From a virus (Duplodnaviria > Heunggongvirae > Uroviricota > Caudoviricetes), in IMG/VR virus record IMGVR_UViG_2925919700_000002, positions 1 through 12,421 of that record: a stretch of 12,421 nucleotides of DNA; one strand, 5' to 3'. The position numbers and the translations under genes were made by a program. The notes beneath the pieces are model-generated. The model made no database searches. It was not told the origin of the DNA and worked only from the letters and a program-made list of their open reading frames with translations. Of the stretch, positions 1 through 12,421 are shown piece by piece; within the stretch, counting starts at the first letter, position 1, and every line of letters begins with the position of its first letter.

Positions 1-1146
1 TTACGCCTTCTTTATATCCTCCATAATTCCAGAGTGGGACATATTTGGGACATTATCACCAAAAATGTCGTCTATTTTCCTCGAATGCTCTGTCAAATGA
101 TTAGGCGCAAGGTGAGCATACCTACGAACCATTTCTATGGACTCCCATCCGCCCATTTCCTGAAGCACTGATAATGGGACGCCTGACTGAATCAGCCAGC
201 TTGCCCAGGTGTGTCTGAGGTCATGGAAACGGAAATCTTCAATTCCTGCACGACGACAAGCTGATAGCCATGATGTCTTGCTGTCGATGCGCATCTTCCT
301 GACCGCAGGCGTTGATGTTCCATCTGCTCGCTTAGCCGCCTTGGTATGTACAAACACCCATTTGTGATGCTTGCCTATTTGATCACGCAACACTTTACAG
401 GCGGTATCGTTCAGCGCCACACCAATGGCGCGGTTTGATTTGCTCTCTTCTGGATTCACCCAGGCAACTCGTCGCTGCATGTCGATTTGTTGCCATTCCA
501 GATTTATGATGTTCGACTTTCTCAGACCAGTTGCCAGCGCAAACTTGACGACAGATTTCAGTGGTTCGGGGCACTCATCAATAAGGCGTTTTGCTTCCTC
601 CTTTTCCAGCCATCTGACTCGCTTGTTTCTGACCGCTGGTTTCTTGATGACAGGCGCTTTTTCCAGCCACTTCCAGTCGCGTTCTGCAGCACGGAGAATG
701 GCCTTTATCATGGCAAGATGCTTTGCCTTTGTCTGAGTTGATACTGGCTTTGGTTCATAAACAGGCGGTTCTTTACCTTTCCTGATGGCGGCCTGAACTT
801 TCTGTTTCCATATTTCTTTCGTCTTTCTGTTATGCATTCTGCTTACAGCAGAGTAAATCTTTGCCTCCGAGATATCTTTACCAGCTCGTTGCTGCCAGAC
901 GATCCAACCGAGAGTCATATCCCATGCCATGTATTCGTTATCGCCGTTTTTTACTCTACGACGATCTACTAAGTCACCGAAACGCTTTTCCATGAATAAT
1001 TCATAGGCTTCGCGTTCATCTGGCTCTACTTCCAGAGATACGAGTGCGATTTCATAAGCACGGCGCTCAATATCGTCTCGAACCTCTAGGCTGCTGATTC
1101 GTTCTTTGATTTCTTTAATCAGTTCTTTATTGGTAAATGTGGTCAT
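1..1146 (-). CDS. int: Phage tyrosine integrase (P22/DLP12 IntD family catalytic and core-binding domains) with a non-canonical N-terminal ~90 aa
   Basis: 381-aa ORF, stop at 1-3, ATG at 1144-1146. C-terminal region carries the tyrosine recombinase signature ([17 protein letters not shown] ... [39 protein letters not shown]). N-terminal ~90 aa are acidic and helical, unlike the MSLFRR-type arm-binding domain I recall for this family. Confidence 0.85.
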
Positions 1147-1508
1147 TATGCTCCAGCCTCCGGTGCTTTTGGCATTACTGCCCAGTGAGTGATATTGACG
1201 TTTTCAAGGTCCCCGACCTGAAATGTCCACTGCCATTCTCCGGTTTCTTTTTGTCCCCAGGTGTACCAGAGAGAACGCCAGCCAATCAGCCAGCCTTCTC
1301 CATTAGCATCAAATAACAGAACACTTTCATTTGCTGGTGGCAGTTCAGCTGACACTGGTATTATTTTGTTTTCCAGTGCCGCACATTTAGCTTCAAGCGC
1401 GTCGAATTTACGTAACAGGTACTCAGCATTTGTTTCATTCACTTTCAGATCTCGCGGTACACATTTCCCGCGAAGAAACCCTTCCATTTCGAAAACATTC
1501 ATGCGCAT
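1146..1508 (-). CDS. Hypothetical phage protein, DUF551-like C-terminus, translationally coupled to int
   Basis: 120-aa ORF. Its TAA stop overlaps the int ATG (TAATG on the minus strand). GGAG lies 8 nt upstream of the ATG at 1506-1508. C-terminal Trp-rich motif ([17 protein letters not shown] ... [12 protein letters not shown]) resembles the conserved DUF551 C-terminus. Function unknown. Confidence 0.6.
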
Positions 1509-1723
1509 TTGCGTAACTCCGATAAATCGTTAAAACGTTCCATAAACATCCCGTAGGCATGACCCGGTGCCAGTGGAATCACGTTGAACATCTCTGTTGC
1601 CGGGATGCCTTCCAGTACCGTGGCATTTGAAGAGAAGTATGGCTCCCAGCTGGAGCTGATATTTCGTTTTATCGATCGCGCACTGGCGATTGGTGTGCTG
1701 GCCTGATTTTGTGGAGAAAGTTA

Positions 1724-2107
1724 ATGCGTGATATTCAGATGGTTCTTGAACGTTGGGGAGCGTGGGCGGCTAATAATCATGAAGATGTGACCTGGTCGTC
1801 CATTGCCGCCGGTTTTAAGGGATTAATTCCTTCAAAAGTAAAATCTCGCCCGCAATGTTGTGACGATGACGCGATGATTATTTGCGGGTGCATGGCCCGT
1901 CTGAAAAAGAACAACAGCGATTTGCACGATTTATTAGTAGATTATTATGTAGTCGGTATGACATTCATGTCACTGGCAGGTAAGCATTGCTGCTCTGATG
2001 GTTATATCGGGAAAAGGTTACAGAAGGCTGAGGGCATAATTGAAGGGATGTTAATGGCATTAGATATCCGGTTAGAGATGGATATCGTTGTTAATAACTC
2101 TAATTAA
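1724..2107 (+). CDS. quuD: Late-gene antiterminator Q, phage 82 / DLP12 QuuD type
   Basis: 127 aa from ATG 1724 ([14 protein letters not shown]...), with GGAGAAAG 5 nt upstream. Cys clusters ([25 protein letters not shown]) are typical of 82-type Q. The ORF track's TTG at 1709 is a less likely start. Sits directly upstream of the late/lysis region. Confidence 0.85.
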
Positions 2108-2246
2108 TATGCCAATTGTTTACTGAAAGTTATTAAAAATGGGGCGTTGCAACGCCCCCAAAAATAAAGGGTAATATATAACAGAAGGTTTATATAGTTA
2201 GAAGCAAGGTTGTGCTCCTAAAGGAAGTGGCTTGAGGGAGCCACTT
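2108..2246 (+). promoter_or_regulatory. Presumed late promoter and Q-utilisation region (pR'/qut equivalent); exact -35/-10 not resolved
   Basis: Position immediately downstream of Q and upstream of a plus-strand terminator, as in lambda and phage 82. I could not pick a convincing sigma-70 hexamer pair by eye. Confidence 0.3.
2133..2158 (-). terminator. Rho-independent terminator on the minus strand, downstream of nmpC
   Basis: Perfect 18-bp GC-rich palindrome GGGGCGTTGCAACGCCCC (2141-2158). On the minus strand it is followed by ATTTTT; on the plus strand it is flanked by A-runs, so it is strand-specific. Confidence 0.6.
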
Positions 2247-2287
2247 ATATGTTGGGGAGGCAACGCCTCCCGCAACATATCTTTTTC
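2225..2287 (+). terminator. Tandem hairpins followed by a T-run on the plus strand; candidate late terminator (tR' equivalent)
   Basis: Hairpin 1 at 2225-2246 (AAGTGGCT / AGCCACTT). Hairpin 2 at 2247-2280 (ATATGTTGGGGAGGC / GCCTCCCGCAACATAT, one bulge). CTTTTT follows at 2281-2286. Confidence 0.5.
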
Positions 2288-2296
2288 GTAATCAGA

Positions 2297-3394
2297 TTAG
2301 AACTGGTAAACCAGACCTACAGCAACGATGTCATCAGTGCTTACACCGAGTGCTTTAGTGAAGTCATTTTTGTCAAGCAGGTTGATTTTGTAATCAACGA
2401 AAGTAGACATATTTTTGTTGAAGTAATAGGTTGCACCTACATCAACATATTTGACTAAGTCCTGATCGCCCCATACTCCAAGATCCTTACCTTTAGATTG
2501 CAGGTAAGCAACGGACGGACGCAGACCGAAATCGAACTGATATTGTGCAACAGCTTCGAAGTTTTGAGCTTTATTAGCAACGAAGTGATCAGCAAATACA
2601 GTCATATTCTGGGTTTCAGAATAGGTAGTGGCCAGGTAAATGTTGTTAGCGTCATATTTCAGACCTGCGGCCCAAACTTCTGCATTTTTACCGGAAGCAA
2701 ATACTTCAGGAAGAACTTTCCCTGCATTAACTTGAGTGTCGGTACGATCAGATTTCGCATAAGTTGCACCGATACCGAATCCTTCGTATTCATAGGTAGC
2801 AGAGAAACCGAAGCCATCACCGTTACCTTCGGTGTAGTTATCGAAATCGCTACGATCGTTTTTGCCTTGGTACTGAGCAGCAAAGTTCAGACCATCAACC
2901 AGACCAAAGAAGTCGTTGTTACGATAGGTTGCAACACCAGTGGTGCGACCAGTCATGAACACATCTGTTTGGGTCCAGGTATCGCCACCGAATTCTGGCA
3001 GAACGTCAGTCCACGCACCGATGTCGTATGCTACACCGTAGTTACGGCCGTAATCGATTGAGCCGTAGTCACCGAATTTCAGGCCTGCAAATGCAAGACG
3101 GGTTTTGTCTTTGGAGGAACCTTGAGATTCAGCGCGGTTGCCTTTGAATTCATATTCCCACTGACCGAAACCAGTCAGCTGATCGTTGATTTGGGTTTCG
3201 CCTTTGAAGCCCAGACGAACATAAGTAGTATCACCATCATCTGCATCGTTAGAGGAAAAGTAGTGCTTGGCATTAACTTTCCCGTACAGATCCAGCTTGT
3301 TACTGTCTTTATTATAAATTTCAGCTGCCTGAGCAGACATCGCCATCAGTACTGATGCAGCTACAGCAGAAATTGCCACTGTTAATTTTTTCAT
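2297..3394 (-). CDS. nmpC: Outer-membrane general porin, prophage-encoded NmpC/Lc type (OmpC/OmpF/PhoE family), intact
   Basis: 365 aa. Sec signal peptide [23 protein letters not shown] then AEIYNKD. Porin signatures throughout and a C-terminal ...VGLVYQF ending in Phe. AAGGG lies upstream of the ATG at 3392-3394. No insertion sequence interrupts it. Confidence 0.9.
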
Positions 3395-3982
3395 CGTGAG
3401 CCCTTTTTTTTGAACTATTATTAAAAAATGATGTCACTGCACGATAAATATTCATCTAATCAATGTGATTATTTCAAGATGTAAGTTTTAGTTTCTCATT
3501 TAATTTGTGAAGTAGATCTCTATTTTTATCTGAACTTTTTCTATCGAAACCTATTTATGGCTCTTATTTGAACAAAAATAAATCTATTAGCTAATTTATA
3601 TTAATGGCTGTTATTTATGGTGGTTCTATAATTCGTCTGTTTAATTTAAACCGGCTAAAAATAACACTGGAAATTATTTATTGGTTATTTGTTGAGGTTT
3701 TCTTATGTATTTGTGGTGATGTTTTGAACACTCGGTAGCATTCTCATAAATATCATTCAGTGGTTTACGTACGTAAAAAATTGGTTATGCTGTTAAGAGT
3801 GGTTACTTCGTCACACAGCTTAAACCCGCCGTCGAGCTGGTTTTTCCATTTTTTGAGTCTCGATATTAGCTGATAACTCAATACCTGAGTTATTCACTGA
3901 CTCGGAGTCAGTTACGTTTCTGCTTTTTTGCGATACGTTGTATTCCCTCAATTTACACCCGCTTTGTCTGCGAGGTGGGGTT
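3395..3982. promoter_or_regulatory. AT-rich 590-bp intergenic region: nmpC promoter/regulatory region and lysis-cassette leader
   Basis: No ORF of 60 aa or more. Degenerate direct repeats of TTATTTATGG at about 3552, 3611 and 3675, roughly 60 bp apart. Hairpin ACTGAC-TCGGA-GTCAGT at 3896-3912 upstream of the holin. Confidence 0.35.
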
Positions 3983-4198
3983 ATGAAATTCATGGATAAG
4001 TTAACAACTGGAGTCGCCTATGGCACCTCAGCAGGTAGTGCCGGTTACTGGTTTTTACAGCTGCTCGATAAAGTCACTCCCTCACAGTGGGCAGCAATAG
4101 GTGTGCTGGGTAGCCTGGTATTTGGCCTGCTGACGTACCTGACAAACCTTTATTTCAAGATTAAAGAAGATAAGCGCAAGGCTGCGAGAGGTGAATAA
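3983..4198 (+). CDS. essD: Class II pinholin, phage 21 S type, with dual-start motif
   Basis: 71 aa, [24 protein letters not shown]... Met1-Lys-Phe-Met4 gives antiholin and holin starts. Two TMDs and a charged C-terminus ([13 protein letters not shown]). GAGGTGGGG lies upstream. Stop overlaps the endolysin start (TAATG). Confidence 0.9.
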
Positions 4199-4695
4199 TG
4201 CCTCCATCATTACGAAAAGCCGTTGCTGCTGCTATTGGTGGCGGAGCAATTGCTATAGCATCAGTGTTAATCACTGGCCCAAGTGGTAACGATGGTCTGG
4301 AAGGTGTCAGCTACATACCATACAAAGATATTGTTGGTGTATGGACTGTATGTCACGGACACACCGGAAAAGACATCATGCTCGGTAAAACGTATACCAA
4401 AGCAGAATGCAAAGCACTCTTGAATAAAGACCTTGCCACTGTCGCCAGACAAATTAACCCGTATATCAAAGTCGATATACCGGAAACAACGCGCGGCGCT
4501 CTTTACTCATTCGTTTACAATGTGGGTGCTGGCAATTTTAGAACATCGACGCTTCTTCGCAAAATAAACCAGGGCGATATCAAAGGCGCATGTGATCAGC
4601 TGCGTCGCTGGACATACGCTGGCGGTAAGCAATGGAAAGGCCTGATGACTCGTCGTGAGATTGAGCGTGAAGTCTGTTTGTGGGGGCAACAGTGA
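4198..4695 (+). CDS. rrrD: SAR endolysin (signal-anchor-release lysozyme, phage 21 R type)
   Basis: 165 aa. N-terminal Gly/Ala-rich weakly hydrophobic SAR domain ([22 protein letters not shown]) followed by a lysozyme-like catalytic region. ATG overlaps the holin stop. Confidence 0.9.
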
Positions 4696-5153
4696 GCAGA
4701 GTAACCGCGATTATATCCGCTCTGATTATCTGCATCATCGTCAGCCTGTCATGGGCGGTCAATCATTACCGTGATAACGCAATCGCCTACAAAGCCCAGC
4801 GCGACAAAAATGCCAGAGAACTGAAGCTAGCGAACGCGGCAATTACTGACATGCAGATGCGTCAGCGTGATGTTGCTGCGCTCGATGCAAAATACACGAA
4901 GGAGTTAGCTGATGCGAAAGCTGAAAATGATGCTCTGCGTGATGATGTTGCCGCTGGTCGTCGTCGGTTGCACATCAAAGCAGTCTGTCAGTCAGTGCGT
5001 GAAGCCACCACGGCCTCCGGCGTGGATAATGCAGCCTCCCCCCGACTGGCAGACACCGCTGAACGGGATTATTTCACCCTCAGAGAGAGGCTGATCACTA
5101 TGCAAAAACAACTGGAAGGAACCCAGAAGTATATTAATGAGCAGTGCAGATAG
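4692..5153 (+). CDS. rzpD: Rz inner-membrane spanin (i-spanin), lambda Rz-like
   Basis: 153 aa from GTG 4692 ([29 protein letters not shown]...). N-terminal TMD plus coiled-coil periplasmic domain. GTG overlaps the endolysin TGA (GTGA). The ORF track's 4680 start is less likely. Confidence 0.85.
4912..5094 (+). CDS. rzoD: Rz1 outer-membrane lipoprotein spanin (o-spanin), embedded in the +1 frame of Rz
   Basis: 60 aa, [20 protein letters not shown]... Lipobox VVGC, then a proline-rich mature part ([15 protein letters not shown]). GGAG lies 7 nt upstream of the ATG. Lies wholly inside Rz. Confidence 0.8.
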
Positions 5154-5184
5154 AGCTGACCATATCGATGGGCAACTCATGCAA

Positions 5185-5478
5185 TTATTTTGAGCAATAC
5201 ACACGCGCTTCCAGCGGAGTATAAATGCCTAAAGTAATAAAACCGAGCAATCCATTTACGAATGTTTGCTGGGTTTCTGTTTTAACAACATTTTCTGCGC
5301 CGCCACAAATTTTGGCTGCATCGACAGTTTTCTTCTGCCCAATTCCAGAAACGAAGAAATGATGGGTGATGGTTTCCTTTGGTGCTACTGCTGTCTGTTT
5401 GTTTTGAACAGTAAACGTCTGTTGAGCACATCCTGTAATAAGCAGGGCCAGCGCAGTAGCGAGTAGCATTTTTTTCAT
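5185..5478 (-). CDS. borD: Bor lipoprotein (lambda Bor-type serum-resistance outer-membrane lipoprotein)
   Basis: 97 aa. Signal peptide with lipobox (LLITGC). Near-identical to the lambda Bor sequence as I recall it. Confidence 0.9.
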   Translation of the reverse strand: MKKMLLATALALLITGCAQQTFTVQNKQTAVAPKETITHHFFVSGIGQKKTVDAAKICGGAENVVKTETQQTFVNGLLGFITLGIYTPLEARVYCSK

Positions 5479-5768
5479 GGTGTTATTCCCGATGCTTTTT
5501 GAAGTTCGCAGAATCGTATGTGTAGAAAATTAAACAAACCCTAAACAATGAGTTGAAATTTCATATTGTTAATATTTATTAATGTATGTCAGGTGCGATG
5601 AATCGTCATTGTATTCCCGGATTAACTATGTCCACAGCCCTGACGGGGAACTTCTCTGCGGGAGTGTCCGGGAATAATTAAAAACGATGCACACAGGGTT
5701 TAGCGCGTACACGTATTGCATTATGCCAACGCCCCGGTGCTGACACGGAAGAAACCGGACGTTATGAT

Positions 5769-6179
5769 TTAGCGTGGAAAGATTTGTGTAGTGTTCTGAA
5801 TGCTCTCAGTAAATAGTAATGAATTATCAAAGGTATAGTAATATCTTTTATGTTCGTGGATATTTGTAACCCATCGGAAAACTCCTGCTTTAGCAAGATT
5901 TTCCCTGTATTGCTGAAATGTGATTTCTCTTGATTTCAACCTATCAAAGGACGTTTCTATAAGATGCGTATTTCTTGAGAATTTAACATTTACAACCTTT
6001 TTAAGTCCTTTTATTAACACAGTGTTATCGTTTTCTAACACAATGTGAATATTATCTGTGGCTAGATAGTAAATATAATGTGAGACATTGTGACGTTTTA
6101 GTTCAGAATAAAACAATTCACAGTTTAAATCTTTTCGCACTTGATCGAATATTTCTTTAAAAATGGCAACCTGAGCCAT
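5769..6179 (-). CDS. ybcV: DLP12-type prophage protein YbcV (DUF1398)
   Basis: 136 aa from ATG 6177-6179 ([11 protein letters not shown]...), with GGAAGG upstream. The open frame extends upstream to an ATG at 6221 and a TTG at 6302, so the start is ambiguous. Confidence 0.7.
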
Positions 6180-6464
6180 TGGTAAAACCTTCCATGTGAT
6201 ACGAGGGCGCGTAGTTTGCATTATCGTTTTTATCGTTTCAATCTGGTCTGACCTCTTTGTGTTTTGTTGATGATTTATGTCAAATATTAGGAATGTTTTC
6301 AATTAATAGTATTGGTTGTGTAACAAAGTGCGGTCCTGCTGGCATTCTGGAGGGAAATACAACCGACAGATGTATGTAAGGCCAACGTGCTCAAATCTTC
6401 ATACAGAAAGATTTGAAGTAATATTTTAACCGCTAGATGAAGAGCAAGCGCATGGAGCGACAAA

Positions 6465-6671
6465 ATGAATAAAGAACAATCTGCTGATGATCCCTCCGTG
6501 GATCTGATTCGTGTAAAAAATATGCTTAATAGCACCATTTCTATGAGTTACCCTGATGTTGTAATTGCATGTATAGAACATAAGGTGTCTCTGGAAGCAT
6601 TCAGGGCAATTGAGGCAGCGTTGGTGAAGCACGATAATAATATGAAGGATTATTCCCTGGTGGTTGACTGA
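6465..6671 (+). CDS. ybcW: Small DLP12-type prophage protein (YbcW-like), function unknown
   Basis: 68 aa, [22 protein letters not shown]... GGAG lies 7 nt upstream of the ATG. Divergent from ybcV. Confidence 0.6.
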
Positions 6672-6937
6672 TCACCATAACTGCTAATCATTCAAACTAC
6701 TTAACCTGTGACAGAGCCAACACGCAGTCTGTCACTGTCAGGAAAGTGGTAAAACTGCAACTCAATTACTGCAATGCCCTCGTAATTAAGTGAATTTACA
6801 ATATCGTCCTGTTCGGAGGGAAGAACGCGGGATGTTCATTCTTCATCACTTTTAATTGATGTATATGCTCTCTTTTCTGACGTTAGCCTCCGACGGCAGG
6901 CTTCAATGACCCAGGCTGAGAAATTCCCGGACCCTTT

Positions 6938-9028
6938 TTGATCAAGAGCGATGTTAATTTGTTCAATCATTTGGTTAGGAAATCCGCGGCAACGCGCGCC
7001 GAGACAGCAGCAAAACGGGCAGAGGATATTGCATCCGCCGTGGCGCTTGAGGATGCGAGCACGACGAAAAAGGGGATAGTACAGCTCAGCAGTGCGACCA
7101 ACAGCACGTCTGAAACGCTGGCGGCAACGCCAAAGGCAGTAAAAGCAGCCAATGACAATGCTGAGAAACGTCTGCAGAAAGACCAGAACGGCGCTGATAT
7201 ACCCGATAAGGGACGCTTCCTGAACAACATTAACGCGGTCAGTAAAACAGACTTTGCTGATAAGCGTGGTATGCGTTATGTGCGGGTTAACGCTCCTGCA
7301 GGTGCAACATCTGGAAAATATTACCCTGTTGTTGTTATGCGTTCTGCTGGCTCAGTAAGCGAACTGGCATCAAGGGTCATTATCACCACGGCAACGCGAA
7401 CCGCAGGCGATCCGATGAATAACTGCGAGTTTAACGGATTTGTTATGCCTGGTGGCTGGACTGACAGGGGGCGTTATGCTTATGGAATGTTCTGGCAATA
7501 TCAAAACAATGAACGAGCCATCCACTCAATAATGATGAGTAATAAGGGCGATGATTTGCGCTCTGTGTTCTATGTTGATGGCGCTGCTTTCCCTGTTTTT
7601 GCGTTTATCGAAGATGGCCTGTCAATATCCGCACCTGGTGCTGATCTCGTTGTTAATGATACGACCTATAAGTTTGGGGCAACAAATCCAGCGACTGAAT
7701 GTATCGCGGCGGACGTTATCCTTGATTTTAAGAGTGGGCGTGGTTTTTATGAGTCTCATTCGTTAATCGTTAACGATAACTTGTCGTGCAAAAAACTTTT
7801 TGCCACAGACGAAATTGTAGCGCGTGGTGGTAATCAGATTCGAATGATAGGTGGGGAGTATGGTGCATTATGGCGTAATGATGGCGCTAAAACTTACCTG
7901 CTGCTTACCAATCAAGGTGATGTTTATGGTGGCTGGAATACATTAAGACCGTTTGCTATTGATAACGCAACCGGCGAACTGGTTATTGGAACCAAACTGT
8001 CCGCAAGTCTGAACGGTAATGCATTAACAGCAACAAAGCTGCAAACGCCAAGACTGGTTTCTGGTGTTGAGTTTGATGGTTCCAAAGATATTACTTTAAC
8101 CGCCGCGCATGTGGCTGCTTTTGCCAGAAGGGCAACGGATACGTATGCCGATGCGGATGGGGGCGTTCCATGGAATGCCGAATCAGGCGCTTACAATGTC
8201 ACCCGCTCTGGCGACAGCTATATTCTGGTTAACTTCTATACCGGAGTCGGAAGTTGCCGGACCTTGCAGATGAAGGCACATTACAGAAATGGAGGTCTGT
8301 TCTACCGTTCCTCAAGAGATGGCTATGGTTTTGAGGAAGACTGGGCAGAAGTTTATACCTCGAAAAATCTTCCACCAGAAAGCTACCCAGTCGGTGCACC
8401 AATCCCGTGGCCATCAGATACCGTTCCGTCTGGTTATGCCCTGATGCAGGGGCAGACTTTTGACAAATCTGCATACCCGAAACTTGCAGCCGCTTATCCG
8501 TCAGGCGTGATCCCTGATATGCGTGGCTGGACGATTAAGGGCAAACCTGCCAGTGGTCGTGCCGTATTGTCTCAGGAACAGGACGGCATTAAATCGCACA
8601 CCCACAGCGCCAGCGCATCCAGTACGGATTTGGGGACGAAAACCACATCGTCGTTTGATTACGGCACTAAATCCACGAATAACACCGGGGCGCATACGCA
8701 CAGTGTGAGCGGTACAGCCGCAAGTGCCGGAAACCATACTCATAGTGTCACAGGCGCATCAGCAGTCAGCCAGTGGTCACAAAATGGGTCAGTACATAAG
8801 GTAGTGTCTGCGGCCAGTGTGAATACAAGTGCTGCAGGAGCGCACACTCATAGTGTCAGCGGCACAGCCGCATCTGCAGGTGCTCACGCACATACTGTCG
8901 GTATTGGTGCTCATACGCACTCTGTTGCGATTGGCTCACATGGACACACCATCACCGTTAACGCTGCTGGTAACGCGGAAAACACCGTCAAAAACATCGC
9001 ATTTAACTACATTGTGAGGCTTGCATAA
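6938..9028 (+). CDS. stf: Side tail fibre protein, 5'-truncated: distal ~680 aa only, lacking the N-terminal tail-attachment domain; start codon uncertain (possible pseudogene)
   Basis: Open frame of 696 codons from TTG 6938. Similarity to Stf begins near 6984 ([55 protein letters not shown]). Conserved C-terminal block (GAPIPWPSD ... [31 protein letters not shown] ... [18 protein letters not shown]) matches lambda Stf and StfR as recalled. No in-frame ATG with an RBS near the 5' end. Confidence 0.8.
8596..8957 (+). repeat. His-x-His repeat array within the stf 3' region
   Basis: Repeated [15 protein letters not shown] units (8688-8732 and 8838-8882) plus shorter HTHS/HAHT/HGHT units. These are coding repeats, typical of the fibre-tip domains of lambda Stf and T4 gp37-type fibres. 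Confidence 0.7.
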
Positions 9029-9603
9029 TGGCATTCAGAATGAGTGAACAACCACGGACCATAAAAATTTATAATCTGCTGTCCGGAACTAATGAATTTA
9101 TTGGTGAAGGTGATGCATATATTCCGCCTCATACAGGTCTGCCAGCAAACAGTACCGATATTGCACCGCCAGATATTCCGGCTGGTTTCGTGGCTGTTTT
9201 CAACAGTGATGAGTCATCGTGGCATCTCGTTGAAGATCATCGGGGTAAAACGGTTTATGACGTGGCTTCCGGCGACGCGTTATTTATTTCTGAACTCGGC
9301 TCATTACCGGAAAATGTCACCTGGTTATCCCCGGAAGGGGAGTTTCAGAAGTGGAACGGCACAGCCTGGGGGAAGGATACGGAAGCAGAAAAACTGTTCC
9401 GGATCCGGGAGGCGGAAGAAACAAAAAACAGCCTGATGCAGGTAGCCAGTGAGCATATAGCGCCGCTTCAGGATGCTGTGGATCTGGAGATCGCAACGGA
9501 GAAAGAAACCTTGTTGCTGGAAGCCTGGAAAAAGTATCGGGTGTTGCTGAATCGTGTTGATACATCAACTGCACCGGATATTGAATGGCCAGCCCTACCG
9601 TAG
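9028..9603 (+). CDS. tfa: Tail fibre assembly protein (Tfa)
   Basis: 191 aa. ATG overlaps the stf stop (TAATG). Conserved C-terminal Tfa block [37 protein letters not shown]. Confidence 0.85.
9455..9568 (+). repeat. Direct repeat copy A (tfa 3' conserved block)
   Basis: About 114 bp, roughly 85% identical by eye to 12226-12340, in the same orientation. Confidence 0.7.
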
Positions 9604-9679
9604 GGTAAGATATATAAATTCTATAATTAGAAGTATCTTTCCATTTAAGGCTAGGAAGGGGGGCTTGGAAAACGTAAGG

Positions 9680-9703
9680 AATCTCACACCGAGATTATTT
9701 TTA
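9680..9703. terminator. Weak hairpin between convergent tfa and recombinase genes; possible bidirectional terminator
   Basis: Stem AATCTC / GAGATT with loop ACACC at 9680-9696, followed by ATTTTT on the plus strand. Short stem, low confidence. Confidence 0.3.
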
Positions 9704-10291
9704 TATATCAGGTGTCTGATTTTTTGCTTTAGCTCTTAAAATGGTTTGCCGCGAGGTTTTGAATTCTTGGGCAATGTCACTTATATTTATACCTGACTTA
9801 ATTTGCTCTAGTACCCTCTGTATTTGTTCATCATTTAACACAGGTGGGCGACCAAATCGCTTTCCTGCGCCCCGTGCTCTTAATATCCCTGAATGAGTAC
9901 GCTCAAGTAAAAGGTCTCGCTCAAATTCAGCGACTGCTGAAATTACTTGCATCATCATTTTTCCAGGTGGACTGGTCAGGTCAACGCCCCCCAATGCTAA
10001 GCAATGCACTTTGATACCTGCTTTGGTCAGTTGTTCCACCGTTTTACTGATATCCATTGGATTACAACCGAGGCGATCCAGTTTTGTGACAATCAATGCA
10101 TCACCTCTTTTCAGTCGATCAAGCAACTGGTTAAAACCAGGACGCTCACTGGTTGCTGCTGAGCCGCTAATTTGTTCTTCAATTATTTGCTGAGATTTGA
10201 TGTTAAAACCTGCACTTTCGATTTCCCGACGTTGATTTTTGGTTGTTTGTTCCAGAGTTGATACCCGACAGTAAGCATAAATTCGAGACAT
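9701..10291 (-). CDS. Small serine recombinase (resolvase/invertase family), PinR/PinQ-like
   Basis: 196 aa. N-terminal catalytic motif [11 protein letters not shown] with the presumptive catalytic Ser. Conserved [12 protein letters not shown] and [14 protein letters not shown] blocks. C-terminal HTH ([19 protein letters not shown]). Position after stf-tfa on the opposite strand matches the Rac and Qin layout. Confidence 0.85.
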
Positions 10292-10609
10292 AGTGAGATC
10301 TTCTATACGAAATTGGTGTACATATCATAATGCATCTCAGAAAATAATTTTGATTATTTTTGTACATATTTGTATGTACACGTTCGAAAATAAACGAATG
10401 CGTATGCAACCCCGTAATTTTGGTGAGATCCAAAATCGATTTTGTGAAAAATGGCCTTAACTCGGTTTGTTTTTCGAGTTCCGGGCGGACTCAAGGAAGA
10501 AGAATAGTGTTGCGTGTTATTTTAACCAGATTTCAAGTTGTTTGGTCGTGGAAAAGTGGAGCAAAATGTTGTTAAAGTGGAAAAATGATAAAAAAGTAAG
10601 TTTATTATA
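10292..10609. promoter_or_regulatory. 318-bp AT-rich spacer upstream of the recombinase, with palindromes
   Basis: Inverted repeat TGTACATA-tttg-TATGTACA (10361-10380), with a TGTACATA half-site copy at 10317-10324. Perfect 14-bp palindrome CAAAATCGATTTTG (10431-10444). Direct repeats of AAGTGGAAAA around 10549-10585. No convincing ORF. Confidence 0.4.
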
Positions 10610-10843
10610 TTACATTTTACCATTTAAATTTTTGTTGTCTTTAAGAACTGATATCGCTGTTTGTAATAATTCTTTGTTATCCAGCCATGACTTTTTCTTT
10701 ATGTTTCCTTCAATGTAATCAAGCAATGTTCTGGTATTGATAGGTCTTCCCTGTTTTGCTACTTCCATTACAGCATCCCCTAGGATAATTCTTACTTCAG
10801 GAAGCTGCGCAGGGAACCACTTTAGGGTGTCTTTTGATTTCAT
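10610..10843 (-). CDS. Small prophage protein, YnaE/YdfK-like by position and size
   Basis: 77 aa from ATG 10841-10843 (MKSKDTLKWFPAQ...), with AAGGAA 7 nt upstream. The ORF track's start at 10876 has no RBS. Sits upstream of the pin-like gene on the same strand, as ynaE/ydfK do in Rac and Qin. Identity is from recollection, not alignment. Confidence 0.5.
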   Translation of the reverse strand: MKSKDTLKWFPAQLPEVRIILGDAVMEVAKQGRPINTRTLLDYIEGNIKKKSWLDNKELLQTAISVLKDNKNLNGKM

Positions 10844-11343
10844 GAAGATATTCCTTAAAATATTATTGATTTTCATTGCGATATTGTATGTCTGATTCAG
10901 TATATGTTGACTTATACATCGGTTTTGTCTGGGTTATTGGATATGCCAATCCCTAATTTTATTAGAGCATGACTAAAAATGCTGAATATGATAAGGAGCG
11001 AAGTGATTATCAGTATGCTGTTCATATAGCCTCGAATTAGTAATGTGTTATATATGATATAGTTGACAATTTTTATCCTGGGGGTTCTTAAAGTTCGTAG
11101 ATAAACATTGTCGTTTCAGGTATACAGGAATGCTAACAGGTGGCAGCAAAAATCAGGCGGTTTATGGCGCAAGCTGAAGTGGCAACTGCAAACTATCTTA
11201 TGCAGAGACTCTACACGGATTGGGTTTAAAAGTATACATAGATAACAGTTTTTATCTGAAGAAGAAAAATATCAAGGTGATATAGCCTATATGCCTATGA
11301 TGCGGAGGAATGAATGTGATGGGAGTGATGTATCTGAATAGTT

Positions 11344-11383
11344 GAAAAACCGCAGACACGCCTTAAGCAAGAACGTGCTGCGG
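11344..11383 (-). terminator. Rho-independent terminator downstream of the ybcY-like gene
   Basis: On the minus strand: stem CCGCAGCACG ... CGTGTCTGCGG (plus 11350-11383, one bulge) followed directly by TTTTT (plus 11345-11349). Confidence 0.6.
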
Positions 11384-11390
11384 TTGGATG

Positions 11391-12059
11391 CTATTTTTTC
11401 CCTGAAGCGGAAAACATTACTACAGTACCTTGAACCTTGGTTTTAACATTCTCGAAATGCTCTGAGAGTATATGTGTTAAGCCTTCTTCGGAATCTTTTG
11501 TGTTTGAAAAGATGCCTTTCTGATTGTAAATGCGCATCAGTTTTTGACCGAAGCTATTGTGCACAACTCCATCGCCAAGAATTGTGGCTCCGTATAGAGT
11601 TCCATCGTCAGTTAAGGCCTGCGCCGCATTGCGTATTACACAGCTTTTTGTAGATATATTTCCAGGCAGGCAGTGAAGAAGGTAAAACATGGAAATGGAA
11701 TCAAATTGACCATGTAACGCCGCGGGATAAGGTTCAAAAACATCATGGCTAATTTTATGTTTAATTTTTGATTCCCCAGCCCTTGTAGATGCCGCGTTCA
11801 GGCTAGCTTCGTTCAAATCCATTAAAGATATCAGACTACTCTCAGGTACGTGAGTAAGGTAAAACCCAGTTCCAACACCAATATCCAGATGGTTGTTACC
11901 TAAATGTTCCAGAAAGTGTGGAAGAAGGTGTTCCTTTGTAGGACATCCCCATGCAAGCCGATTTGATACTCCCAAAACCCACCAGTCATAAAGCTTTAGG
12001 GTAAGTGGTGTGTAAATTTTAGCCCCATCATCTGTGTTTTTTTTCATTAATTTCACCAT
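11391..12059 (-). CDS. ybcY: Class I SAM-dependent methyltransferase (YbcY-like), apparently intact
   Basis: 222 aa. Motif I DIGVGTGFY. The start may instead be the second Met (ATG ending at 12047), which has GGTG upstream; the first ATG at 12059 has no RBS. Confidence 0.7.
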   Translation of the reverse strand: MVKLMKKNTDDGAKIYTPLTLKLYDWWVLGVSNRLAWGCPTKEHLLPHFLEHLGNNHLDIGVGTGFYLTHVPESSLISLMDLNEASLNAASTRAGESKIKHKISHDVFEPYPAALHGQFDSISMFYLLHCLPGNISTKSCVIRNAAQALTDDGTLYGATILGDGVVHNSFGQKLMRIYNQKGIFSNTKDSEEGLTHILSEHFENVKTKVQGTVVMFSASGKK

Positions 12060-12115
12060 GTTATAGTTTTATTTGTGAATTAAATCAATTATGGCGATGA
12101 ATTACAAGGGGTTAA

Positions 12116-12421
12116 ATGCTGCCGCAGCATAGCGATATTGAAATAGCCTGGTATGCTTCGATACAACAGGAGCCGAATGGCTGGAAGACCGTCACCACAC
12201 AGTTCTACATCCAGGAATTCAGTGAGTATATTGCGCCACTGCAGGATGCTGTAGATCTGGAAATCGCAACGGAGGAAGAAAGATCGTTGCTGGAGGCATG
12301 GAATAAATATCGGGTATTGTTGAATCGAGTTGATACATCAGTAGCTCTGGGTATGAAGCTGTTTGTAACTCATGTTACAGTAACAGTCATTACTATCTCG
12401 AAGGTGCAAAATGTATATTGA
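12116..12421 (+). CDS. tfaX: Tail fibre assembly protein remnant (TfaX-like), carrying only the conserved Tfa C-terminal block
   Basis: 101 aa. AAGGGG lies upstream of the ATG at 12116. Contains [37 protein letters not shown], then an unrelated tail. Stop at 12419-12421. Confidence 0.6.
12226..12340 (+). repeat. Direct repeat copy B (tfa 3' conserved block)
   Basis: Partner of 9455-9568, same orientation. Confidence 0.7.

Follow-up and report, generated by a model that had tools for sequence, protein, structure and literature searches.

The conserved motifs of tail fibre genes and tail fibre assembly (tfa) genes were reportedly described by Haggard-Ljungquist in 1992 and by Sandmeier in 1992/1994. 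The right end of the DLP12 prophage of Escherichia coli K-12 reads tfaD-ybcY-tfaX-appY-ompT, with ybcY a pseudogene, and those of the Rac and Qin prophages read stfR-tfaR-pinR-ynaE-ynaM and stfQ-tfaQ-pinQ-ydfK-ynfT, respectively. Phage lambda has been shown experimentally to recombine with Rac and Qin in stf/tfa (De Paepe et al. 2014, PMC3945230). According to the same source, Rad52-like recombinases such as Red-beta and RecT dominate on short, diverged homology; a divergence of 12% lowers recombination by Red-beta no more than about 100-fold, pairing requires at least 23-27 nt with Red-beta and 31-34 nt with RecA, and exchanges of ~100 bp within genes are common (PMC3945230). Here we analyze a stretch of 12,421 nt of tailed-phage DNA (positions 1 to 12,421 of IMG/VR record IMGVR_UViG_2925919700_000002, hereafter the window), in which the 3' block of tfa occurs twice in direct orientation. 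We propose, with a probability of roughly 0.75, that this block is a homology patch for phage mosaicism and that its second copy is a displaced tfa 3' end, now largely a relic.

The window contains one long direct repeat, recovered by a repeat search as 9436-9581 and 12209-12354 (146 nt, 82% identical) and by BLAST as an ungapped core of 132 nt that is 84.1% identical (9436-9567 versus 12209-12340; E = 8e-36), with a spacing of 2773 bp from copy 1 to copy 2. A preliminary description of this DNA had called two direct copies of about 114 bp and about 85% identity at 9455-9568 and 12226-12340; these are real and fall inside the 132-bp core. The two copies and the open reading frames (ORFs) that hold them are as follows.

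9028..9603, plus strand: tfa, full-length tail fibre assembly gene of the Rac/Qin type, 191 amino acids (aa), protein ending ...PDIEWPALP
9436..9567, plus strand: repeat copy 1, forming the end of the full tfa; conserved block of the Tfa C-terminal domain
12116..12421, plus strand: tfaX-type mini-ORF, 101 aa, with 31 unique N-terminal codons, the Tfa C-domain block and the non-canonical tail VALGMKLFV...
12209..12340, plus strand: repeat copy 2, the Tfa C-domain block within tfaX

Both copies are read in frame 0 of their ORFs, tfa for copy 1 and the ORF at 12116-12421 for copy 2. The tfa product is a full-length Tfa by its matches to Pfam PF02413 (Caudo_TAP; profile positions 1-130 of 131, E = 2e-43) and to phrog_105 (1.9e-98), and it is 95% identical to tfaR and tfaQ of K-12; the repeated block aligns with residues 113-174, the C-terminal domain, of Mu TfaU (PDB 5yvq_B). 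Judging from these alignments, the repeat encodes the C-terminal domain that is conserved among tail fibre assembly proteins. In the copy 2 ORF, the match to Caudo_TAP is confined to profile positions 75-121 (E = 9e-18), short of a full-length Tfa; no Tfa family is matched by its first 31 residues, and another sequence stands in place of the canonical PDIEWP tail, so that by the same comparisons it is a C-domain-only fragment and not a complete Tfa. The two copies differ at 21 positions, 13 of which are third codon positions, with a ratio of non-synonymous to synonymous substitution rates (dN/dS) of 0.19, a pattern indicating that the block evolved as coding sequence; among 11 block alleles, 28 of the 48 variable columns are likewise third codon positions.

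The window lies at the same chromosomal locus as K-12 DLP12, because strain JNU, which is 100% identical to the window over 6981-12421, where a complete lambdoid prophage occupying the DLP12 locus has its right end, continues downstream with an alpha/beta hydrolase gene, ompT, envY, ybcH, and nfrA. Like the window, K-12 DLP12 has a pair of direct tfa blocks and a hairpin-methyltransferase-tfaX cassette, which is 97.4% identical over 11350-12345. Unlike the window, it has no pin-ydfK-ynaM, and 14 nt separate its tfaD stop codon from the hairpin; in K-12, a frameshift breaks ybcY, and tfaX is interrupted by a stop codon while retaining a canonical tail, whereas the window has an intact homologue of ybcY and a tfaX with a non-canonical tail, and the downstream gene is appY in K-12 but the hydrolase gene in the window lineage. 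Rac, Qin, and phage mEp460_ev081 resemble the window over 8900-11387, including the terminal hairpin, but lack the methyltransferase gene and the second tfa block, so they have no direct repeat, and past the hairpin they continue into their own attachment or integrase region. The whole tfa-pin-ydfK-methyltransferase-tfaX arrangement is found in the lambdoid phages Turner, Kati, and PhiR68_2 (96% identity, 97-100% coverage), followed in Turner by hydrolase, ompT, and integrase genes; these are complete phages with full tail genes, in contrast to the window, with its truncated stf. The source given in the Turner record is a water sample. Compared to the 40-nt exact run common to the two block copies of Turner, PhiR26_1, and K-12, the longest exact run shared by the two copies in the window is 12 nt.

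In each genome checked, the two copies are 84-89% identical, and across genomes the block alleles sort into a copy-1 type and a copy-2 type that are 80-89% identical to each other; the recurrence of both types in different genomes indicates that the repeat is not a recent duplication in place. We considered gene conversion between the copies within a genome and rejected it, since identity within genomes (84-89%) is not clearly above that between types of different genomes (80-89%). The P2-like locus is perhaps an exception to this absence of a gene-conversion signal, of which the window bears no sign. Nearly all tfa alleles have the block in common at 80-100% nucleotide identity, and for copy 1 the conservation with other tfa alleles extends to 9590. 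This near-universal sharing points to a homology patch for recombination between phages and prophages.

Both copies of the block contain homology breakpoints or are bordered by them. At copy 2, the cassette compared to K-12 shows about 10 differences in 950 nt (~99% identical) up to ~12300 and then 20 in the next 60 nt, and compared to the P2-like locus its divergence jumps at ~12240, within the block. The methyltransferase genes of the lambdoid and P2-like contexts differ at 5 of 669 nt, with a synonymous divergence (dS) of 0.014, while the copy 2 block has a dS of 0.5-0.64, nearly all of its changes being synonymous; this jump in dS at the block, from 0.014 to 0.5-0.6, is as expected if the block has repeatedly been copied in from functional tfa genes. 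At copy 1, the near-identical core common to the P2-like locus and PhiR26_1 begins within the block, and in the phages Tritos, HannyBb, PhiR63_1, PhiR49_1, and 2G7b, which carry a different fibre module, homology starts mid-block at 9493. At that junction, an unrelated tail-fibre/chaperone module passes into the right half of the tfa block (in 2G7b, positions 3867-3964 of locus L008).

The preliminary description had also expected alleles with and without the interior, with breakpoints in the repeats, and these exist in draft genomes, with a single crossover inside the block, though they are rare (L018, L019, L020, and L021). In three of them (L019, L020, and L021), the gene order is J-lom-stf-tfa-hydrolase-ompT, and contig L021 recurs in at least 20 samples. 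The L019-type alleles are collinear with PhiR26_1 on both sides, minus exactly the 917 bp between the blocks, and their informative sites are of copy-1 type until a 40-nt stretch in which the two parental copies do not differ, after which they are of copy-2 type. L018 has the single-nucleotide polymorphisms of the window's own copy 1 on its left and copy-2 sequence from about 9501, and the switch falls within the 12-nt shared run ATCGCAACGGAG. Further independent joints are seen in P0048, whose left part is of the Rac type, and in L012, where a different fibre module is joined to a hybrid block. We favor the view that the L019- and L018-type alleles arose by deletion rather than representing ancestral states, since otherwise their sole tfa gene would end in a non-canonical tail. 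Phage ev099 was considered as a further deletion allele and set aside, because alignment gave an ordinary tfa allele and unrelated downstream DNA; its tfa 3' block was a slightly better match to copy 2 in the phage search.

The DNA between the copies holds the following features.

9591..11349, minus strand: Rac/Qin-type accessory module pin-ydfK-ynaM, 1759 nt replacing the 38 nt that separate tfa block and hairpin in K-12 DLP12
9701-10291, minus strand: pin, recombinase, 196 aa, with Resolvase and HTH_7 domains; matches phrog_125 (DNA invertase) at 3e-66
10610-10843, minus strand: ydfK-like ORF, reaching 10876 from an upstream ATG; ydfK is annotated in strain JNU
10912-11025, minus strand: ynaM/ynfT, 37 aa, annotated in strain JNU, translation verified
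11351..11388, no strand assigned: hairpin, 10-bp stem with one bulge, the junction common to both module types
11391..12059, minus strand: class I S-adenosylmethionine-dependent methyltransferase, with Methyltransf_12/23/25/11 domains; matches phrog_2132 at 8e-157
12060..12115, no strand assigned: divergent methyltransferase/tfaX spacer, with an AAGGGG ribosome-binding site (RBS) 6 nt before the ATG at 12116

Over 8900-11387, the window matches the right ends of K-12 Rac and Qin and of phage mEp460_ev081 collinearly at 95% identity, and this homology stops just past the hairpin, at 11387 in Rac and at 11399 in Qin and mEp460_ev081. Homology with K-12 DLP12, PhiR26_1, 2G7b, and a P2-like prophage at smpB begins at exactly 11350 and runs into tfaX, and pin is absent from all four loci; in K-12, PhiR26_1, and the P2-like loci L016/L017, which have no pin module, the hairpin stands 14 nt past the tfa stop codon. 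The boundaries of the pin module are thus the end of the conserved tfa block (9590) on the left and the hairpin common to both on the right, neither of which is in the repeats. Taken together, these homology boundaries indicate that the interior is two independent modules, pin-ydfK-ynaM and, from 11350, a cassette of hairpin, methyltransferase, and tfaX 5' part, and not a single cargo; as expected of morons, the two are present or absent independently of each other in phage records and genomes. The genes that the preliminary description had placed between the copies (a recombinase, a YnaE/YdfK-like ORF, and a methyltransferase) are as described there, and its view of the interior as cargo between tfa copies is borne out insofar as the DNA is accessory and polymorphic, but not as one 2.7-kb unit, with Rac and Qin having pin without a second tfa. 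Its 514-bp AT-rich spacer exists as a stretch but is not empty, as it holds ynaM/ynfT (10912-11025) and the hairpin (11351-11388).

On the minus strand, the hairpin folds at -22.3 kcal/mol (z = -4.6) and is followed by UUUUUC, which makes it the predicted terminator of the methyltransferase gene. In the P2-like loci L015-L017, the hairpin is duplicated, standing after tfa and again after tfaX (locus positions 5236-5276 and 6286-6326), with an 83% match to window positions 11350-11390; the second hairpin suggests that the repeat unit in that context is block plus tail plus hairpin. In the P2-like prophage, dinI lies downstream of the cassette. Against solved structures, the methyltransferase gave only weak matches, to UbiG and to juvenile-hormone acid methyltransferases (E about 1e-3). 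No NCBIfam match was obtained for the methyltransferase, YdfK, or TfaX, and their PHROG families have no assigned function; published work on the tfaX and ybcY genes yielded only mentions in promoter mapping. In the K-12 spacer between the divergent ybcY and tfaX genes, an in vitro SELEX (systematic evolution of ligands by exponential enrichment) peak of RpoD holoenzyme has been mapped, and the spacer is marked as H-NS bound (PMC3946193). A consensus promoter scan of the window spacer (12060-12115) gave one promoter-like match, on the minus strand and not above chance.

Frequencies were determined in 5426 complete E. coli genomes. Methyltransferase plus tfaX, at a coverage of at least 80%, is present in 3417 (63%); the K-12-type junction of tfa, hairpin, and methyltransferase in about 1506; the window-type junction of ynaM, hairpin, and methyltransferase in about 316; and the whole 3.5-kb arrangement in 310. 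In some other genomes with the methyltransferase, upstream homology begins within the block, at the equivalents of 9494-9497 in H103 and H104. GenBank phage records together hold every variant: besides the full arrangement of Turner, Kati, and PhiR68_2 and the mid-block joint at 9493 of the five phages named above, the methyltransferase occurs alone in PhiR26_1, R29, and R30, and pin alone in mEp460_ev081, 2H10, and PhiR34_1. In lambdoid phages, as in one family of P2-like prophages, the usual place of the cassette is directly behind a tfa gene or fragment. The window-type arrangement is common and already within public annotations.

By profile match, tfaX belongs to phrog_2341 (5e-56, positions 1-87 of 88); its protein is 99% identical to cluster P0001, and it is homologous to K-12 tfaX. 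The preliminary description had placed the second copy in a short ORF with a good RBS, and this holds (AAGGGG, ORF 12116-12421), the ORF being the known tfaX; in strain JNU, it is labelled by PGAP as a partial tfa pseudogene. TfaX proteins end in at least eight distinct C-terminal tails, most of them canonical Tfa tails and the rest including VALGMKLFV... and the common VARKRTA; in the window lineage, the conserved PDIEWP tail has been destroyed. The ORF is disrupted by an internal stop in K-12 and by the loss of 7 bp in 2G7b, and many clusters are frameshifted or cut short (P0049, P0054, P0055, and P0060-P0071). We take tfaX to be mostly a relic, and quite unlikely to be functional.

These observations would be accounted for if the block serves as a homology patch at which crossovers, in it or at its edges, join varied fibre modules on the left to varied accessory or "b-region" DNA on the right. 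The likely agents would be divergence-tolerant Rad52-like recombinases such as Red-beta or RecT, and copy 2 would be the 3' end of a tfa gene displaced by such crossovers. The window would then be a second-order mosaic, the 38-bp hairpin common to both being the joint between a right end of the Rac/Qin type (tfa-pin-ydfK-ynaM-hairpin) and a DLP12-type part (hairpin-methyltransferase-tfaX-hydrolase-ompT). Recombination of copy 1 with copy 2 could delete the interior and appears to have done so in some lineages. As in relaxed recombination between phages and prophages, mosaic joints lie in short, diverged homology patches; unlike the cases described there (PMC3945230), the patch occurs twice, in direct orientation, in one genome, which makes intramolecular deletion possible besides exchange between genomes.

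Several observations weigh against this reading. No full-length Tfa with the tfaX N-terminus was found among the best 120 of 652 homologues; many genomes still carry an intact tfaX ORF with a canonical tail, and the unique N-terminal part of tfaX has a dN/dS of 0.37 relative to the P2-like gene and no non-synonymous change relative to K-12. It is conceivable that the L019- and L018-type alleles are states that precede insertion. A clean deletion junction was found in 0 of the 5426 complete genomes with a 599-nt synthetic query made of window tfa, hybrid block, and hydrolase flank (at least 80% coverage), which argues that the copies seldom recombine or that selection acts against it; a longer query of 999 nt was unusable, its hits pairing two stretches of the widespread tfa-methyltransferase-tfaX arrangement in spans of 2048 bp. 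With a longest exact run of 12 nt, below the published pairing minima of both Red-beta and RecA (PMC3945230), moreover, deletion between the copies of the window should be infrequent. Natural alleles with their junction inside the repeat do occur, but the exact homology in the window is shorter than a deletion-prone repeat calls for, and to describe this segment as prone to loss, as was done at first, was an overstatement.

Other explanations start from the nature of the repeat. Copy 1 matches the Rfam family RF02111 (IS009, a putative small RNA) over 9371-9569 with 212.6 bits against a gathering score of 117, and copy 2 over 12139-12342 with 107.4 bits (E = 6e-26), under the gathering score, as though the block were a small-RNA gene in two copies. 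We consider this extremely improbable, given the third-codon-position bias (13 of 21 differences; 28 of 48 columns) and dN/dS of 0.19, the in-frame position of both copies in ORFs of a known protein domain with a solved structure, and several base pairs of the IS009 model that are non-canonical in copy 2; the window sequence that matches IS009 encodes protein and evolves accordingly. The IS009 family appears, from these alignments, to label the coding 3' end of tfa, so that a match says little on function, although the block may have a dual coding and RNA role. Between the direct repeats lies a segment with a serine recombinase gene, and some related loci lack that segment, as would be seen if a single mobile cargo of ~2.6 kb had inserted in tfa with target duplication, or if the block had recently been duplicated in place. 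Either origin is very unlikely: the two halves vary independently and have boundaries of their own outside the repeats (9590 and 11350), the copies are 84-89% identical per genome while the cassette is 96-100% conserved across phages, the copy-1 and copy-2 types found across genomes are old alleles, and Pin is of the small DNA invertase type, not a transposase or integrase, with no crossover site present. Pin does recall the invertible tail-fibre segments of Mu (G/Gin), P1 (C/Cin), and e14 (P/Pin), which have a Din-family invertase gene beside stf/tfa and carry two tfa genes, so that the locus could be a remnant of such a segment with copy 2 as its alternative tfa'. The window has the adjoining invertase gene and two tfa-related sequences, but its copies are direct and not inverted, it lacks the inverted pair of 26-bp crossover sites and an stf/tfa set in opposite orientation, no alternative stf C-terminus accompanies copy 2, there is no second stf fragment, and the cassette occurs without an invertase in about 1506 genomes and in P2-like prophages. 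A search for the e14 pix site with up to three mismatches and for a generic gix/pix pattern gave no match anywhere in the 12.4-kb window, whereas the e14 pix sites were recovered as a control; a core-motif search gave a single AAACCNNGGTTT-like match, at 11432, which is at chance level. The lack of a pix- or gix-like site above chance leads us to reject an origin or excision mediated by Pin, and an invertible ancestry of the segment is highly improbable.

Two further readings concern the cassette. Methyltransferase and tfaX could be a selected accessory module of two genes, in which TfaX works as a mini-chaperone or decoy made of the C-domain alone; as part of the same reading, the repeat would be kept since both proteins need the C-domain, and would not be a recombination scar. 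The presence of the cassette in 63% of complete E. coli genomes, in viable phages, and in both lambdoid and P2-like contexts speaks for it, as do the separate family phrog_2341, the good RBS, the variants of tfaX with canonical tails, a dN/dS below 1 within tfaX, and the binding of RNA polymerase to the K-12 divergent spacer in vitro (PMC3946193). This module is nonetheless quite improbable: tfaX has been disrupted many times independently (the K-12 stop, the 2G7b deletion, and the broken clusters), its PDIEWP tail is destroyed in the window, it is devoid of the N-terminal fibre-binding domain, the low dN/dS of the block is explained equally well by repeated copying-in from functional tfa genes, and the K-12 spacer is marked as H-NS bound (PMC3946193). 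It is also possible, though unlikely, that hairpin, methyltransferase, and tfaX make up a homology-guided cassette with a piece of the tfa block at each end, which moves or is refreshed via any tfa gene. The methyltransferase, with its 5 of 669 nt differing between lambdoid and P2-like contexts and flanking blocks that differ by 11-20%, is compatible with this, and the near-identical core is bounded on the left within copy 1 and on the right within copy 2 (versus K-12) or near the tfaX start (versus the P2-like locus), yet nothing requires it. If true, it would mean transfer between unrelated tailed phages, the lambdoid siphoviruses and the P2-like myoviruses; each insertion would regenerate an intact tfa and a displaced tfaX, and TfaX might itself act as a C-domain-only chaperone or decoy. 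We retain the homology patch with a displaced, largely relic tfa 3' end as the best explanation.

The window as a whole is 99.9-100% identical to the chromosomes of E. coli MB06234, MEI7BO1-21, and AREA_497 and, from its gene content, is a decayed prophage of the DLP12 family, a deleted remnant with an integrase gene, Q, nmpC, lysis genes, bor, ybcV, and ybcW, followed by a 5'-truncated stf:

6938..9028, plus strand: stf, side tail fibre gene, 5'-truncated, 696-aa ORF with Phage_fiber_2, Collar, and gp37_C domains

This stf encodes the cognate fibre for the tfa that follows. The ORF has TTG as its start codon and becomes identical to the 3354-nt stfR of JNU only from 6981 onward. Toward the C-terminus, positions 8687-8925 hold short degenerate repeats, in units of 63 nt (73% alike) and 20 nt, which encode histidine-rich fibre repeats of the GAHTHS type. 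Complete relatives carry packaging, head, and tail genes between the ybcW region and mid-stf, which this prophage appears to have lost; this apparent loss would leave tfa and tfaX in the window with no virion to serve. Pin is an orphan invertase here, as in Rac and Qin. The nmpC-type porin gene (2297-3394, minus strand) is intact at 365 aa, and the nmpC of K-12 DLP12 is interrupted by IS5. The integrase ORF (1-1146, minus strand, 381 aa) looks chimeric, with its first ~90 residues not intD-like; from about residue 95 it presumably resembles the intD type of K-12. Its chimeric look suggests a deletion fusion at the left end of the prophage.

The feature as a whole is of a known kind, that is, mosaicism at a conserved coding block, morons at the position of the lambda b-region, and the annotated tfaD-ybcY-tfaX of K-12, and it leaves current views of phage evolution unchanged. 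Rfam IS009 matches and tfaX-type ORFs should be interpreted as fragments of the tfa 3' end. Among phage accessory genes, that for the ybcY-type methyltransferase is very common, being found in 63% of complete E. coli genomes and in GenBank phage records, usually just downstream of a tfa gene or tfa fragment. The locus offers a worked example of how a conserved coding block of 130 bp can act as a seam along which E. coli phages and cryptic prophages reshuffle accessory genes and fibre modules, the latter bearing on host range, and it would explain the tfaD-ybcY-tfaX oddity of K-12, long annotated and passed over without comment.

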